Positions 54,704 to 64,000 of a stretch of DNA of 64,000 bases are shown one piece after another. The DNA is from Pristiophorus japonicus (taxonomy: Eukaryota). Each line of letters begins with the position of its first letter. Positions within the stretch are counted from its first letter, which is position 1. The translations under genes were made by a program, and so were the position numbers. A model generated the notes under the pieces. It was not told where the DNA came from. It saw only the letters and a program-made list of their open reading frames with translations, and made no database searches. The stretch covers positions 418,810,001 to 418,874,000 of the forward strand of contig NC_091977.1 of assembly GCF_044704955.1 (NCBI RefSeq), in the 5' to 3' direction.

Positions 54704-55731
54704 GTCCAAGATCACCCCAACCTCTGTCGTTGAGCTGCAGTATGCAGACGACGCCTACATCTGCGCACATTCTGAGGCTGAACTATAGGATATTGTCGAT
54801 GTATTCACCGAGGCATAAGAAAGAATGGGCCTTATGCTTAACATCCATAAGACAAAGGTCCTCCGCCAGCCTGTCCTCACCGCACAGCACTGCCCCCCTA
54901 GTCATCAAGATTCACGGCGCGGCCCTCGACAATGTGAACCACTTCCCATACCTCGGGAGCCTTTTATCAACAAAGACAGACATTGATGCGGAGATTCAAC
55001 ATTGCCTCCAGTGCGCCAGTGCAGTCTTTGGCCGCCTGAGGAAAAGAAAGTTCGAAGACCAGGCCCTCAAATCTACCACCAAGCTCATGGTCTACAGGTA
55101 GTAATACCCGCTCTCCTGTATGGATCAGAGGCATGGACAATGTACAGAAGACACGTCAAGTCGCTGAAGATATATCACCAACGATGTCTCTGCAAGATCC
55201 TGCAAATCCCCTGGGAGGACAGGTGCACCAATATCAGTGTCCTCGCCCAGGCTAACATCCCCAGCATTGAAGCACTGACCACACTTGATCAGCTTCACTG
55301 GGCAGGCCACATAGTTCACATGCCAGACACGAGGCTCCCTAAGCAATTGCTCTATGCGGAACTCCTTCACGGCAAATGAGCCAAAGGTGGGCAGCGGAAA
55401 CGTTATAAGGATACCCTCAAAGCCTCCCTGGTAAAGTGTGACATCACCACTGACAAGTGGGAGTCCCTGGCTGAAGACCGCCCTAGGTGCAGAAAGTGCA
55501 TCCGGGAGGGTGTTGAGCTCTTCGAATTTGAACGCCGCGAGCATGAAGAGGTCAGGCGCAGGCAGCGGAAGGAGCATGTGCAAATCAGTCCCACCCCCCC
55601 TTCTCCCGACGAATGTCAATATCACCTGTGACAGGGTCTGTGGCTCTCGCATTGGGCTGTTCAGCCACCAAAGAACTCACTTTAGGAGTGGAAGCAAATC
55701 TTCCTCGATTCTGAGGGACTGCCTATGAGAT
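54704..55731 (+). mobile_element. RTE LINE, 5'-truncated
   Basis: ELQYADDA, HFPYLGS, PALLYGSEAW and GGQRKR motifs, a C2H2-like end (CDRVCGSRIGLFSHQRTH) and tail GCCTATGAGATG. Confidence 0.9.
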
Positions 55732-56984
55732 GTATAAGAGGTAGGTATCATCATCATCATATGCAGTCCCTTGAAATCGAGGAAGACTTGCTTCTACTCT
55801 AAAAGTGAGTTCTCAGGTAACTGTACAGTCCAATACAGAAATTACAGTCTCTGTCACAGGTGGGATAGACAATTGTTGAAGGAAAGGGTGGGTGGGGAGT
55901 CTGGTTTGCCGCACACTCCTTCCGCTGTCTGCGCTTGGTTTCTGGTGATGAGACTCGAGGTGCTCAGCACCCACCCGGATGCTCTTCCTCCACTTAGGGC
56001 AGTCTTGGGCCAGGTATTCCCAGGTGCCAGTGGGAATGTTGCACTTTATCAAGGAAGCTTTGAGAATGTCCTTGAAACGTTTCCTCTGCCCACCTTTGGC
56101 TCGCTTGCTTTGTAGGAGTTCCAAGTAGAGCGCTTGCTTTGGGAGTCTCGTGTCAGGCATGCAGATGATGTGGCCTGCCCAATGGAGCTGGTCGAGTGTA
56201 GTCAGTGCTTCGATGCTGGGGATTTTAGCCTGATCGAGAACACTGACGTTGGTGCATCCTCCCAGTGGATTTGCAGGATCTTGTGGAGGCAACGCTGGTG
56301 GTATTTCTCCAGTGCTTTGAGGTGTATATGGTCCATGTCTCTGAGCCATATAGGAGGACAGGTATCGCTACTGCCCTGTAGACCATAAGCTTGATGCCAG
56401 ATTTGAGGTCCTGGTCTTCAAACACACTCTTCCTCAGGCAAGCAAAGGCTGCACTGGCACACTCGAGGCGGTGTTGGACTTTGTCGTCGATGTCTACCCT
56501 TGCTGATAGTAGGCTCCCAAGTATGGAAAATGGTCCATGTTGTCCAAGTCCACGCCATGGATTTTGATGACCGGGGGCTGTGCTGTGTGGCGGAATCAGG
56601 TTTGTGGAGGACCTTTGTCTTACGGATATTTAGTGTAAGGCCCATGCTTTCGTATGCCTTTGAGAATGTGAAAAAGGATTGCGAAAGTGATAGATGGCTA
56701 GAGAAGGTAGCAAAAGGATGGAGATAGGGAATCATGGGTAAATGGCTGACCAAAGATGTCAAGCTGTGATAACTACAATGTCAGCACAAAAAGGGGTTAC
56801 TCAGAGTTGTGGTCAAACACGAGTTACGCGAAAAAGCAAAAGTTAGACATGAGTCAGACGAGGGGCTGCTATATCCAGCCATGAAATAGGGAAATGCTAT
56901 GAAAATCGAAACAATAAACACATCCCTGGAGCCTGCCCTATTTGGAGAGTTGTTAGCCTGCAATTGGGTATGCTATGGAGGAAA

Positions 56985-57155
56985 TCAACCAATGATTGTA
57001 TAAACTGAGTGTCACTCAAATGTGTTCTGCTGTAACAATGTATAAGTGTTGAGCTTTTGTACTGTTACGAGACTTGTCAGGAGAAAGGTGGACAGGCTCG
57101 AATCGAGAGTGTTCCCTTTATCTTAACAGGTCCCGGCCGGAGAATCTCTAATAAA
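56985..57155 (+). promoter_or_regulatory. ERV LTR promoter and poly(A) signals
   Basis: CCAAT near 56989, TATAAG near 57042 and AATAAA at 57150-57155, in U3-R order and duplicated in the 3' LTR. Confidence 0.6.
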
Positions 57156-57550
57156 GGTCTTATGTTGCTAAGACTAAAAGTGTTCATGCGTCAGTGAATT
57201 CGCTGAAACAGATTGAAGGGAAAAGAATCCAGTATCTACATTTGGTGTCAGAAGTGGGATCTCAACAGACGACTGCCGAAAGCTTGCGAATTAAGAGCTA
57301 GACTAGCCTTGGACGAGACGAGAGGAAAATGGCCACTGGAGTAAGTATAATTTCAATACTGCTCCAGTTTCCTCCGGTTTCAAAAGTCTGAGGAAAGTTT
57401 AGCCACTCGCTGGTTCTCAGGTGGTGTCTGAACGAGATCCAGGTCAATCTGGCGAACACTTTCTAAACTTAGGAAATAAGTGTCCAAGTCAGGTGTGACG
57501 TTGACCTTGTATATCACTTGTCCTGTCTAGGCACTGATTGGATTTAATTA

Positions 57551-57766
57551 GGAAACCGTGTAGCGACACGAAGAGAAAAATCACGCGGGCCACATAGAAA
57601 AACGCAGAGATTTGGGATAAGCCGTGTAGCGACACGAAGAGAGAAATCGCGTAGGAAACCGTGTAGCGACACGAAGAGAGAAATCGCGTAGGAAACCGTG
57701 TAGCGACACGAAGAGAGAAATCGCGTAAGAAACCGTGTAGCGACATGAAGAGAGAAATCGCGCAAG
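57551..57766 (+). repeat. 37-bp tandem repeat in the ERV leader (four tandem copies plus one upstream copy)
   Basis: Unit AAACCGTGTAGCGACACGAAGAGAGAAATCGCGTAGG, containing the hairpin CGTGT-AGCG-ACACG. Confidence 0.92.
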
Positions 57767-58289
57767 CCGAGGGGTGACACGGGATTGTGTAAATTTTAAA
57801 TTGTACTTGCGCCAGGAGTGGTGTCGATCTTGTATATCACTTGGTCCACCTAGGCTCTGGGCAAGCTAAACTAGAACTAACATGGGACGACGTGGAGGTA
57901 ATTTGGATTAATTAGGACCCTGATCCAACGTGCGGTGACACAGGGATGGGTTATTTAGATAAAACTACGAATTCTCTGAAAGGTCATGGATCAAAAAAAA
58001 TTAATAGGAAAGAGAGACTCTTGTGAACGTCTGTTTTAAATGAGAAATGCTTGTATGATTTTTACTGTGGAGAAGGAAGCTTGTGTGGGGAGACCGGGGA
58101 GTTGTGGTTTGTTTTAGCTCCACCCACTTTTTCAAACAGTGAAAGTTTTTTTTAACCCTTCGTAGTGTGGTCCTGTATGTGGGAAGTTTAAGAGTGTGAA
58201 CCTTAATGAATTACGTATATTCAGATGATAAGTTACGGAGCCAGGAAATGCACAAAGGATAAGTTTGTTGAGTAAAAAATATATATATA

Positions 58290-59625
58290 TGGTCCCGGTG
58301 GTTAAAAAAGGATTTAATAGCCAAATGGAGACAGTACTGTCAAAAGCTGAAAGATGAGTCCCTTCTGTCAAGCTGGCAGGAGAACGCCACTAAACTCGGG
58401 CTGTCCTTGACAGAAGGAGGACATGTTAAAACTGTAGACGTCCTAAAGAAAGAGTGCGCTCACGAGAAACGTACTAAGAGTTCCCTTGGGACCTCTGAGA
58501 AGGGTACAGATAGACTACGTAGTCGAATGGTTGGCTTTGCGTTGTCCGAGGCTGATGATGAAATTGATGAATGGACACAGCCGTGCCAAACGGCGCCTCC
58601 TGCAGCCTCTGACCCTTTGTCACAGCCTCTTTCCCATCCCCCTCCACCTTACGCTCCGGCGAGAGGAGTTAAAGATAAATGTAACCCTACACCAACGAAG
58701 CGACAAGCCCAAACAGACTCCAGTTTATAGATCATCTTCGAACTACTATTTCAGTTTATAATGCAGAATCAAGAGACTTGTGGTCCTTAGTGCAGCAAAC
58801 CCTGAGCCCGACTGAACACGTCCGGTTCTTAGAAAATTTGAGGCAAGCCACCCATGATGCATTAGCGACTGCTCACCCTAATAATGCCCAGGATCACCTA
58901 AACGCTATCTTTAATGCTCTCAGCAAGAACCTTCAGAAGCCCATCAGTATGACAGCAGTCTTAGAAACTAAACCCAAACGAGAAGAAACTGCCGACGAAT
59001 TCATGGAAAGATTTATTGAAATATACGGAGGTCAATCAGGAAATAATGCCTTCAGGGCAGGGGACAATTCACCTCAATTCTGCGCTATTCTACTTCAGTA
59101 CCTGCCCTATTCGATTGCTCACGCTATCCGGACAAATAATATGAATTGGGCAGATAACAGTAGAGCCCAAATGGAAAGAGCAGTAAAATATTATTGGCAG
59201 GAGAAGAAAGGAGGGGAAGGAGGAGGCGCATCCCTGACCCGGGTCAAAACCGAATATGTGACTAGAAAGGAAGAACCCCCACGGAGAGGACCCTGGTCCG
59301 ACCCGAGGGGATACCAGATGGAACCACAGTACTGTGTAAAGGGATGGGTGGATAACCAAGGATACGGATATACCCAACACCCAAATGGCCCAGGCCCCGC
59401 TAATTACGGACCGCCCTACTGTCCTTGGCCTGGTATGGGAAGAGGTCGGGGCTGGGAAAGACGAGATGGATGCTTTAATTGTGGGCAAGAAGGACATTGG
59501 AGTAGAGAGTGTCCCTCCCGTCGGCACGAAAGAGGAGGGGGGCAAGCGGGGAGAGGACGGTGATCTTACACTAACTTCTCCCAGAACAACCCCTTTGGCC
59601 AACCATCCCCCGATTACGTAACTTG
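58290..59625 (+). pseudogene. ERV gag (disrupted; true start not resolved)
   Basis: PPPY late domain, capsid with MHR-like KPKREETADEFMERF, single CCHC knuckle CFNCGQEGHWSRECP and RG-rich NC. Confidence 0.85.
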
Positions 59626-61677
59626 ATTGTACAGAGAACCTCCCCGGATGACGAACCGATTTGCCAGTTTCCAGTCCCTAGCACGGCTAAACAAATGCGA
59701 CAGTGGTTGGGGGTGATCAATTACTGCAGATCCTGGATCCCTAACGTCGCCCTGATGACTAAGCACCTTACCCCGTATACAAATGAGGAAGGCAGCTTTA
59801 AAATAAAAATTGCAGATGTCCAAGCCTTTAAGGAACTAAAGACAGCCCTGCTGCAAGCTCCGGCTTTGGGCCGGCCCCTCTATGACCGGCCCTTTCAACT
59901 GTATTGTACCATCCTGAAAGACTGTGCTACTGCTGTCTTAACTTAGAAACACGGGGATAAGCATAGGCCTGTTGCCTACTACTCTTCCAAAATAGACCCC
60001 GTTGCCTTGAGGCACCCTGTATGTACTCAAATATTAACCGCCATCTACAATAGCCTTCAATCCGCTGCCAACATTACCCTCCAGCAGGATATTGTTGTGT
60101 ACACCTCTCACTCTGTAGCTGCCCTTCTGGGCCAACTGCAGACTCAACACCTTACCATGGCCAGGCAAAGCAGATATGAGATCTACCTACTGAATAATCC
60201 TAAGCTGACCTTTCAGCACTGTACTGCCATTAATCCGGCCTGTTTTCTTACTGAGCCACCCCAAGATGAGGAAGAACCCAGTCATGATTGTTTATCTTTA
60301 ATTCAGGAGGCTTCGTCGGTCAGGGAAGATTTAGTTGACGTACCAATTGAAGACCCAGACTGTATTATGTATGTTGACGGAAGTTCTTCTATTAATCCAG
60401 AAGGTACACGAATCTTAGGATACGCCATAGTAAACCAGGAGAATCAGGTCTTGGAATCTGCCGCCTTTGAAACTGCCTATTCTGCCCAACAAGCTGAACT
60501 ATTCGCCCTCACCCGAGCCTGTATCTTGGCCAAAGACCTCAAAGTCAATATCTATACCGACTCTAGGTATGCCTTTAGGGTAGCCCATGATTTCGGACAA
60601 TTATGGAAAAACAGGGGATTCCTAACCTCACAGGGGAATGAGATATCCCATAAGCAACTAGTATCTGATTTGTTGCAAGCCCTCATGCTCCCTAAACGTA
60701 TTGCTATTGTTAATTGCACTGCCCACACTACCGGAAACTCTCCGGTCGATATAGGAAACCGCCATGCTGACAGAGAGGCTAAACAGGCCTCTTGCAGACA
60801 ACAAATGGTGGTGCCGAGAATGATGAGTCAAACTAAAAGTCCTGCCAAGGATAAGTTAGCCTCGGAAAAACCAATGCCAACCATCCAAGATGTCATTAAA
60901 GCACAGGAGGACGCTCCTGAAAAAGATAAACTGTTGTGGAAAGATTATGGATGTACTTATGACAATGTTTCTAAACTCTGGACCACTCCCGCGGAACAGA
61001 CTTGCATGTCTGACGAGTTGGCTCTATGGGTTATTGAATGTATGCATTTTGCTACTCATTGTGGAGCAAGGACAACAAGTGACACGCTTTTGGCCACTTG
61101 GTGGCACCCTAGACTCCAGATGCTAGCCCAGAACATCAGTAGTCGCTGCCTTGTTTGCCAACAGCATAATCCAGGGAAGGGAGTCCCCTGTGATTGGGGT
61201 AAGACGCCCCTACCAGAAGGTCCCTTTGAGACCTTGCAGTTGGACTACATTAAGTTGCAAAAAGTTCAGTGTTACAAATATGTGTTAGTAATAGTAGATG
61301 TGTTTAGCAGATGGATTGAAGCCTACCCTACCCTGGACAATAAGGCTCAAACTGTTGTTAAGGTGTTAATGAGGGAAATTGTTCCTAGATATGGTATCCC
61401 AGCTCGACTGATGACCACCTATGTTCTTTCTCTGACTCAAGCTCTGCGACTAGCTCACAACCAGGTTCGAGAGGCTCACCTCGACCTCCCAGTTTTACCC
61501 GAATCGTCCCTCGTGGCACCAGGGAAGTATGTCCTGATTAAGAAATGGATTCGAAAGGGACTAGAGCCACGATGGGAGGGGCCCTTTCAGGTGTTACTCA
61601 CTACCCCCACCACAGCTAAGGTTGAAGGGCTAAGTGCCTGGGTTCACCTGCACCACTCTAAACTTATTACTTCATAA
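59626..61677 (+). pseudogene. ERV pol remnant (RT thumb and connection, RNase H, integrase N- and C-terminal parts)
   Basis: LGVINYCRSWIP, YVDGSS, SAQQAEL.AL, IYTDSRYAF, GN..AD, HHCC finger and LEPRWEGPFQVLLTTP. No protease DTG, no YxDD and no second D or E of integrase. Confidence 0.92.
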
Positions 61678-61879
61678 TGAGCCTCTCACTGGTCGTCCTA
61701 ACCCTTGTTTCTGTTCCAGACTTCCTCTCCTCCATAGCTGAATAAACCACATCCTTGGGGCAGGAAGAAAAATGCCAAGAACATGGCAGGAGAAAGGAAC
61801 AAGCAGACTTAGCTGTTTTCTGAGCTATCCTTATCTTATTGTTAACTAATGTATAGCATCGTCTAAAATTATTTAAACA

Positions 61880-62916
61880 TGTGTAAGCTAGCAGGTATAA
61901 TTGTGCTATCCTAGCAGAACTAGAAGGGCTACAGGATAACTTATTTTATCAGACCCATACCCGATTGCATGGTAATCGAACTGTGTGTTACCCACTAGCC
62001 CAATCAGTAGCCTCCCCGCGACTTATATACGGCGGATACCTCGGACGCACCCTGTGAGGGACAAACGGGCGAATATAGAAGGGGTATTCCGGGGAAGATG
62101 TGTGGAATTAATAAACTCCATGAATCCTGAGTGCAGGGGATCCCAGGGAAAGAACGGAGCGGTATGCTCGGACATTGCAAGCTACCCGCTTTGCTTCTCA
62201 GGACAAGGGTGGGGTTATGCCCTGGTCCCCGGGAACGCCACCTGTGTGCAGACGCAGTGTGCCCGTCAGCACTGTCGAGTGCGTAAGGGCCAATTTACCT
62301 GTACCTGTAACGAGCAAAGATGCCGGAACGTGACCGCAGGAAGGCAAGTTATCTGCGGTCAGTGTAACGGAACTCATGTCAGCTCAGAAACATGGGCATA
62401 CCCGTTTGATGCTTACCAATTGGTAGGATCAGGCTCAAATTCAAGGGAACCTAGCAATTGGTGGTATAAGCAGTTCACGAGTGTTAGCAACACCAACGTA
62501 AAGTGTTATAGAGCTAAGGAAGGATTCGTGTTCCTCCTCAACGGCACCTTCAAGACAGCAACACCGACCCTCCCGGTCCTCTTTGCAGTAGGAACTATAG
62601 GACCACTCACTGTCCCATGCCCCAAAAGGGGGTATACCCAGAGAAAGGAAATAGTTGGTTGGATTGGTTATTTGGAGGATCCTGGGGATCTTATTTAATG
62701 CATGGAGCAGTTATTCTCATTATGATAATAGTTACCTGTTGTCTGATTATTGGTTGCTTTAATGTCTGTTGTAAAGTAATGATGGCAAAATTGGAGCAAA
62801 CTCTTACAGTCACGGGCTCCCGGAATCTGGTTCAACAGACTAAAGATTTACTCGAGAATCAAGAAGAGTATGAGAAACAAGAATGCGAACGGCTGAATGC
62901 GATATTCCTGGAATAA
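61880..62916 (+). pseudogene. ERV env remnant (signal-like start, Cys-rich SU-like domain, membrane anchor and tail)
   Basis: Splice acceptor CTAAC..ctgttccag ending at 61719. NLFYQTH..GNRTVCYP, a Cys-rich ORF with sequons, and the anchor WLDWLFGGSWGSYLMHGAVILIMIIVTCCLII just before the PPT. Confidence 0.78.
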
Positions 62917-64000
62917 TCACCAGGGTTATCATGGAATGATAAAAGGGGGGAATGAGAATGTGAAAAAGGATTGCGAAAGTGGTAGATGGCTAGAGAAGGT
63001 AGCAAAAGGATGGAGATAGGGAATCATGGGTAAATGGCTGACCAAAGATGTCAAGCTGTGATAACTACAATGTCAGCACAAAAAGGGGTTACTCAGAGTT
63101 GTGGTTAAACACGAGTTACGTGAAAAAGCAAAAGTTAGACATGAGTCAGACGAGGGGCTGCTATATCCAGCCATGAAATAGGGAAATGCTATGAAAATCG
63201 AAACAATAAACACATCCCTGGAGCCTGCCCTATTTGGAGAGTTGTTAGCCTGCAATTGGGTATGCTATGGGGGAAATCGACCAATGATTGTATAAACTGA
63301 GTGTCACTCAAATGTGTTCTGCTGTAACAATGTATAAGTGTTGAGCTTTTGTACTGTTACGAGACTTGTCAGGAGAAAGGTGGACAGGCTCGAATCGAGA
63401 GTATTCCCTTTATCTTAACAGGTCCCGGCCGGAGAATCTCTAATAAAGGTCTTATGTTGCTAAGACTAAAAGTGTTCGTGTGTCAATGAATTCGCTGAAA
63501 CAGATTGAAGGGAAAAGAATCCAGTATCTACACCTTGGTGAAGATGTTGACGATGGGTTGGAGTTCAGCCTCTGAGTATGCGCAGACACAAGCTTCATCC
63601 AATTACTGTAGTTCGATGACAAAGGATGGGACGACCTTGGATCTAGCCTGGAGTTGATGAAGGTTGAACAGGTTCCCATTGGTTCTATAGTTTAGTTCCA
63701 CTCCAGCGGGGAGCTTGTTGAGAGTGAGATGGAGTATTGCAGTGAGGAAGATCGAGAAGGCGTGATGACGTAGCCCTGCTTGACCCCAGTCCGGATGTGG
63801 ATTGGGTCTGTGGTGGATCCGTTGGTCAGAATCACAGCTTGCATATCATCGTGGAACAGGAGGAGGATGATGACAAACTTTTGGGGACAGCCGAAACGGA
63901 GGAGCACGCTCCATGGTCCGTCACAGTTGACAGTTTCAAAAGCCTTTGTGAGGTCAAAGAAGGCCATGTACAAGGGTTGGTGCTGTACCATGCATTTCTC

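Follow-up and report, generated by a model that had tools for sequence, protein, structure and literature searches.

A defective class I endogenous retrovirus of Pristiophorus japonicus belongs to a multi-copy family with inherited, reassorting deletions

The window, a stretch of 64,000 nt on contig NC_091977.1 of Pristiophorus japonicus (GCF_044704955.1), contains at 56661..63532 a provirus of an endogenous retrovirus (ERV). An initial annotation of this DNA described a young copy with intact cis signals and four large deletions that seemed unlikely to have formed after insertion. It proposed a streamlined non-autonomous lineage mobilised by a helper virus, possibly making interfering proteins. 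The questions raised by this locus are where the deletions came from and how so incomplete a provirus was copied. We find that the deletions are inherited. The best explanation, with a probability of about 0.88, is that the element is a single integrated member of a defective class I ERV present in many copies, which helpers likely copied and which likely acquired its deletions when templates were switched between subfamilies.

The same deletions at other loci

The coding part of the element contains five lesions:

58715..58725, plus strand: J1, loss of the capsid start (about 413-451 nt), inside a sister-subfamily patch
59610..59620, plus strand: fifth lesion, a 13-nt deletion at the gag end (about 59615)
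59652..59660, plus strand: J2, protease/reverse transcriptase (RT) deletion of about 1505-1521 nt showing 9 nt of overlap and lying within a sister-subfamily patch at about 59410-59860
at 61411, plus strand: J3, integrase-core deletion of 336 nt, in frame
62633..62645, plus strand: J4, deletion of the transmembrane protein (TM) ectodomain, 400-404 nt, frameshifting, with a 9-nt overlap

Deletion sizes were mapped by alignment to less-deleted natural copies, against which all four large junctions proved genuine. Compared with a copy whose gag is open, J1 removes 430 nt and therefore shifts the frame, as had been proposed; the join of protease to the RT thumb at J2 and the in-frame loss of integrase sequence at J3 were also borne out. 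At J4 the ectodomain deletion is real, but the supposed joining of the surface protein (SU) to the membrane anchor is not, since their frames differ. The 13-nt deletion and a stop at 59944 had been overlooked. Splicing was considered as the origin of the deletions and rejected on inspection, the breakpoints having short overlaps and no clean GT-AG ends.

Junction patterns were searched over the animal's own 5.9-Gb genome, with reversed-pattern controls all returning zero. J1 was found at at least 28 places, J2 at at least 179 (72 with the exact letters of the window), J3 at at least 783 and J4 at at least 25, while the undeleted integrase site was retrieved at at least 347; these lower bounds are not strictly comparable because the patterns differ in mutability. 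A pattern for the primer-binding site (PBS) and leader had at least 1751 matches. A similarity search of the same genome, in which 32 of 5693 candidates were scored, gave whole-length matches at 96-97%. Among 152 records (151 loci, picked by similarity or by junction, plus the window), 14 carry all four junctions together. The flanks of these copies differ, and their target-site duplications (TSDs) are perfect and all different in 11 cases, imperfect in two and within a tandem array in one. A contig from an independent run, under a second organism label, crosses J3 with three differences and no gap. The same junction is present in a public sawshark protein (P0004), which may share the assembly and was not counted as independent.

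The four deletions were inherited and did not form at this locus. Because they are common to many insertions, the window copy belongs to a crippled lineage. Formation of the deletions here after insertion, an assembly collapse or a segmental duplication together have next to no probability. Some fetched loci are indeed segmental or haplotype duplicates with the same flanks (L039/L040, L041/L042, the L070 group and L162-L167), but every junction occurs at 25-783 places, the different TSDs of the all-four copies refute a duplication origin, and the independent contig speaks against a collapse. Local deletion and assembly collapse are thus excluded, and the doubt first raised about a post-insertion origin was well founded.

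Mosaic structure

The junctions do not travel as a block. Among 50 J2 copies with the window's LTR (long terminal repeat), all four combinations of J1 and J3 are present, and J4 is found both with and without J1. J3 also occurs in 31 copies with other LTRs. The 13-nt gag-end deletion accompanies J2 in 48 of the 50; one of the remaining two has it with a further 1-nt loss, and two other-LTR copies have J2 without it.

The sequence around the junctions was compared between subfamilies, and one tract is sharply bounded:

61262..61494, plus strand: recombinant sister-subfamily tract of about 230 nt, carrying J3, delimited by diagnostic sites

Fifty sites are diagnostic, telling same-LTR copies with intact integrase apart from other-LTR copies with the integrase deletion. 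Within this tract all 12 consecutive sites have the sister-subfamily letter in the window, as against none of the 17 before it and none of the 21 after it; at those 12 sites, 28-39 of the 38-39 integrase-deleted copies with the window's LTR have the same letter. Near J2, the window's distance is 3-7% to other-LTR copies and 11-17% to complete copies with its own LTR. The foreign patch at J1 is a single 150-nt bin (7% versus 15%), and the region 57910-58359 gave no alignment to own-LTR complete copies while lying 2-6% from other-LTR copies. J4 alone of the four junctions sits in the family's own env. A nucleotide tree without support values was read only qualitatively because the copies are recombinant.

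J3 is also common in a sample taken by position. Of 28 such proviruses, all from one part of contig C1 and possibly including local duplicates, 20 have J3; only 2-6 retain the RT catalytic region, and only 2-6 the integrase core. When J2 sites on contigs C1 and C2 were cross-counted by hand, 14 of the 19 had J3, two had undeleted integrase and three could not be assigned. Judged from these sequence comparisons, J1-J3 lie in sister-subfamily sequence and the element is a mosaic. The description of it as a streamlined lineage therefore holds as to its non-autonomy, but not as one lineage losing four segments in turn, since the deletions reassort.

Complete relatives and candidate helpers

Three independent insertions with the LTR and env type of the window retain all four segments (L070, L107 and L109); L103 and L106 are duplicates of L070, with the same flanks. 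Complete pol was found in 28 non-duplicate copies. Divergence between paired LTRs has a median of 1.4% in the doubly deleted copies (range 0.5-3.5%; 29 of 38 with a usable call) and of 1.6% in the complete copies (13 of 28 with a usable call). The structurally complete same-LTR/env copies show the putative helper class. A search for a full-length helper with the same LTR had been suggested, and it was answered in structure by L070, L107 and L109, although their reading frames are broken; such breaks are expected for fixed copies.

Complete proviruses have also been multiplied by segmental duplication, with the same flanks or TSD, in L070 and L102-L106 (contig C9, 202-222 Mb) and in a second group, L162-L165 and L167 (contig C1, first 3.2 Mb).

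Coding remnants

The reading frames that remain in the window copy are as follows:

58272..58730, plus strand: 5' gag remnant frame, ending just past J1
58685..59563, plus strand: C-terminal part of capsid and nucleocapsid, with one CCHC knuckle
59575..59946, plus strand: protease stub fused to the RT thumb, ended by the stop at 59944
59947..61677, plus strand: connection, RNase H and deleted integrase, 576 codons from stop to stop, first ATG at 60157
61976..62698, plus strand: remnant frame of SU; further small deletions lie at the env 5' end
62646..62916, plus strand: env membrane anchor and tail, in a frame unlike that of SU

The pol frame is preserved across J2 and across J3, but the 13-nt deletion breaks the frame between gag and the pol remnant. 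The frame shift at J4 means that SU and the anchor make no fused protein. Pfam searches of the window frames retrieved a zinc knuckle, RNase H, the zinc-binding and C-terminal domains of integrase and a partial rve, the C-terminal match being to MLVIN_C, an MLV-like integrase C-terminus (5e-17). Neither RVP nor RVT_1 was found in these frames, whereas a relative has both. The RNase H-integrase frame is open as described, although the 556 codons first given count from a TTG. Similarly, env was correctly said to lack a CX6CC motif, its TM ectodomain being deleted, but in relatives with the env type of the window the motif is CX6C, not CX6CC. An ATG frame at 57882-57911 resembles the gag start of complete relatives and closes after nine codons.

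Competing explanations

On the explanation that we prefer, proteins from complete helper proviruses would have reverse-transcribed and integrated the element, and its deletions would have been collected as RT switched templates between RNAs of different subfamilies packaged together. Breakpoint overlaps are 9 nt at J2 and J4 and 1-2 nt at J1 and J3. Overlaps of 9 nt are typical of RT template jumps, an established mechanism, and J2 and J4 may have arisen from such jumps at short direct repeats; J1-J3 probably came into this LTR background by recombination. Replication would have selected the cis signals only, and the open RNase H-integrase frame would reflect recent helper ancestry and limited decay, with no job of its own. 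The proposed amplification by a helper is supported by the identical junctions with different TSDs and by the complete same-LTR copies; it is the single streamlined lineage in that proposal that does not.

Several points weigh against this explanation. Mobilisation in trans is likely, as a deduction from the copies themselves. None of the 28 complete-pol copies examined, through best hits only, has an unbroken gag-pro-pol and env, so that the helper itself remains putative. With overlaps of only 1-2 nt, a template-jump origin of J1 and J3 would be conjectural. The remaining points come from selection tests, from which, as from the trees, 11 duplicate loci were excluded (L040, L042, L102-L106, L163-L165 and L167). 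Variants shared among deleted copies have a ratio of nonsynonymous to synonymous change (dN/dS) of about 0.3, like complete copies; most of these variants also occur in complete copies. When restricted to variants not seen outside the lineage, a filter that depletes synonymous changes and under which only shared-versus-private contrasts are interpreted, shared variants still have a dN/dS of 0.58-0.75 against 1.4-1.6 for private ones (Fisher p 0.003 and 0.04). In the all-four set, the lineage-exclusive shared variants comprise nine synonymous and six nonsynonymous changes. This residual synonymous excess may come from variation contributed by unsampled helpers or from weak selection.

It could alternatively be read as a trace of function: the deleted copies would make a remnant protein (RNase H with the integrase ends, or capsid-nucleocapsid) that aids mobilisation in cis or disturbs the helper. 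Consistent with such a protein are the pol frame kept through J2 and J3, the open 576-codon frame of the window, the excess itself and the precedent of the Gag-Pol fusion of IAP I-delta-1 (PMC6466679). Nevertheless, we consider it improbable. In 48 of the 50 same-LTR J2 copies, gag and the pol remnant are in different frames, and a 160-nt frameshifting deletion common to 16 of 38 copies, or the stop at 59944, cuts the frame further; the 28 complete copies all lack this stop, which 10 of the 22 sister copies that retain the site have. Five copies share an 8-nt frameshift in the C-terminal part of integrase. Only 5 of 38 sister copies have an open RNase H-integrase frame counted from its first ATG; for the part up to J3, the open ones number 9 among 38 deleted copies and 4 among 28 complete ones (p 0.53). 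Private variants of the deleted copies have a dN/dS of 0.82-1.06 in the RNase H-integrase and capsid-nucleocapsid frames. For SU, where counts are small, shared variants give 1.03 with J4 and 0.29 where TM is kept. The comparison of dN/dS across copies called for at the outset is thus near neutral for private changes and retains a weak synonymous excess for lineage-exclusive shared ones. An interfering protein in particular is unlikely because the frame is open in so few copies and private changes are neutral; with a pol remnant cut off from gag, and frameshifts and stops common to amplified copies, that suggestion of the initial annotation is not supported.

Complementary defective genomes, RT-positive but integrase-deleted on one side and with integrase plus env only on the other, might have fed each other with no complete helper needed. 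Twelve copies combine protease-RT with J3, and 16 have integrase without capsid, RT or RNase H. The 5' junctions of the integrase-only copies are of at least three kinds, each with its end at the RNase H/integrase border, and the lineage-exclusive dN/dS of these copies is 0.36 on 21 variants. However, the 28 complete-pol copies are of similar LTR age, the RT of the RT-positive/J3 copies has no lineage-exclusive constraint (one synonymous, five nonsynonymous changes), and gag is not connected to the integrase frame of the main integrase-only type, which leaves the packaging of that protein unexplained. We give this scheme very little credence as a replacement for helpers. A broader and still doubtful idea is that J3 is a selfish allele of single origin, which crossed by recombination into other LTR/env subfamilies and swept each through the cis advantage of losing an RNA segment; the retained N-terminal stretch of integrase would then be a cis RNA element, and complementary genomes may have fed each other. 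That stretch is retained in every derivative type seen.

Element boundaries and cis signals

The ends of the provirus and its cis signals are listed below:

56657..56660, plus strand: left 4-bp TSD, CCTT, read in the sequence
56661..57240, plus strand: 5' LTR, 580 nt, TG...CA, from the LTR alignment
57243..57260, plus strand: PBS, likely for tRNA-Leu, from its complement behind a T-loop motif and from ARAGORN
57341..57342, plus strand: splice donor GT, read in the sequence, conserved in 49 of 50 sister copies
57619..57762, plus strand: leader tandem repeats with a 37-nt period
61718..61719, plus strand: env splice acceptor AG, at most one mismatch in 49 of 50 sister copies
62941..62952, plus strand: polypurine tract (PPT), read in the sequence
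62953..63532, plus strand: 3' LTR, 580 nt, from the LTR alignment
63533..63536, plus strand: right TSD, CCTT, read in the sequence

The alignment of the two LTRs has no gaps and nine differences in 580 sites (1.55%), every one a transition, in agreement with the first estimate. The PBS, PPT, 4-bp TSD, donor and acceptor reported initially are all present, and each of the PBS, PPT, donor and acceptor has at most one mismatch in 48-49 of 50 sister copies. Behind a T-loop motif, the PBS complement was found at 505 genomic positions; ARAGORN called tRNA-Leu for one of three such loci that were fetched. An Rfam scan of the element gave no matches. On contig C8, at about 174.39-174.55 Mb, repeats of about 1762 nt form a long tandem array with a tRNA-like 3' motif to which this PBS is complementary.

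The provirus sits inside LINE-like RT sequence on the minus strand (window 56000-56660 and 63533-64000), the right flank matching RVT_1; we take the interrupted sequence to be RTE-like. Upstream of the LINE fragment lies an inverted repeat (55553-55937) with 135-nt arms, 75% complementary.

Other derivative types

Besides copies like that of the window, an integrase-only type lacks capsid, protease, RT and RNase H, most of its members retaining env (L067, L069, L071, L072, L074, L079, L080, L166, L168, L170, L172, L173, L175, L177, L178, L179 and L181). An env-less subfamily with another LTR (L057-L061, L082, L083 and L087) keeps all or part of protease-RT and has the same integrase deletion; in L057 the pol frame runs to 1013 codons. 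In one all-four copy, L050, the position corresponding to window 60120-60127 is occupied by 1.4 kb of inserted sequence containing an RT-like YxDD frame.

Classification and age

The nearest proteins to the pol of a relative are from sharks and skates (64-91%). In a 35-row pol tree, the family falls in a shark/skate clade with an SH-aLRT support of 100, as sought by the phylogeny first suggested. This clade is sister to walleye epidermal hyperplasia virus 1 (WEHV-1; SH-aLRT 99), a placement that involves a single epsilon reference on a long branch, without bootstrap, and an identity of only 38%. Class I ERVs have gag and pro-pol in one frame split by a stop, and a 4-bp TSD; the complete relatives share this arrangement, and the relation is lost in the window copy. 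The genus Epsilonretrovirus is characterised by accessory cyclin-like genes. By its pol, its 4-bp TSD and the arrangement in its complete relatives, the element is classed as an epsilon-related class I ERV, one member of a swarm in a cartilaginous fish. The low LTR divergence supports calling the copy young only in a relative sense: with the assumed shark rate and the mammalian rate quoted in PMC4422223, neither measured for this host, 1.55% corresponds to about 35 or 3.5 million years, respectively.

Comparison with known systems

Among cartilaginous fish, CmiERV lineages II/III (part 1 of PMC4422223) share with WEHV-1 an epsilon relation to this family, CmiERV itself being absent from our tree. 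Three near-complete CmiERV copies are reported, and that part of the paper mentions no defective swarm. In the literature on non-autonomous ERVs of sharks, fish and elasmobranchs, judged by title or the start of the abstract and with most subscription papers outside the search, no description of such a swarm was found.

Further parallels come from mammals. HERV-H RTVLH2 has 705 copies with shared pol and env deletions against 77 fairly intact ones, by which they are thought to have been copied (PMC6629862). Like the present family, it is a class I ERV in which shared-deletion copies far outnumber intact ones; it differs in its human host and His PBS, and the sections consulted describe no transfer of deletions between subfamilies that differ in LTR and env. 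In the C/D pair of bovine ERVK[2-1-LTR], defective copies make up 85%; they are trans-complemented and recombine with competent ones in co-packaged RNAs (PMC10924933). The D type resembles our element in its defective majority, trans-complementation and recombination between co-packaged RNAs. It is, however, betaretrovirus-like, with one swapped central segment and no reassorting deletions, and its activity was measured, whereas the shark element is known from sequence alone. In mouse, the non-autonomous deleted forms of IAP I-delta-1 and ETn/MusD out-insert their helpers (PMC6466679). IAP I-delta-1 does so with an in-frame, cis-acting Gag-Pol fusion, whereas here the gag and pol remnants are out of frame through the 13-nt deletion, the J1 frameshift and the shared downstream breaks.

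The probable mechanism is a known one, that of trans-complemented ERVs as in mammals, and what is new is a class I example in a cartilaginous fish. It stands out from the routine in showing clearly how a single integrase deletion passed between subfamilies and came to dominate the family. Since each deletion serves as a unique marker, this large family (at least 1751 PBS-bearing proviruses) gives an unusually clear history of co-packaging and of recombination between subfamilies. With such a history one can test why defective genomes replicate better than their helpers.

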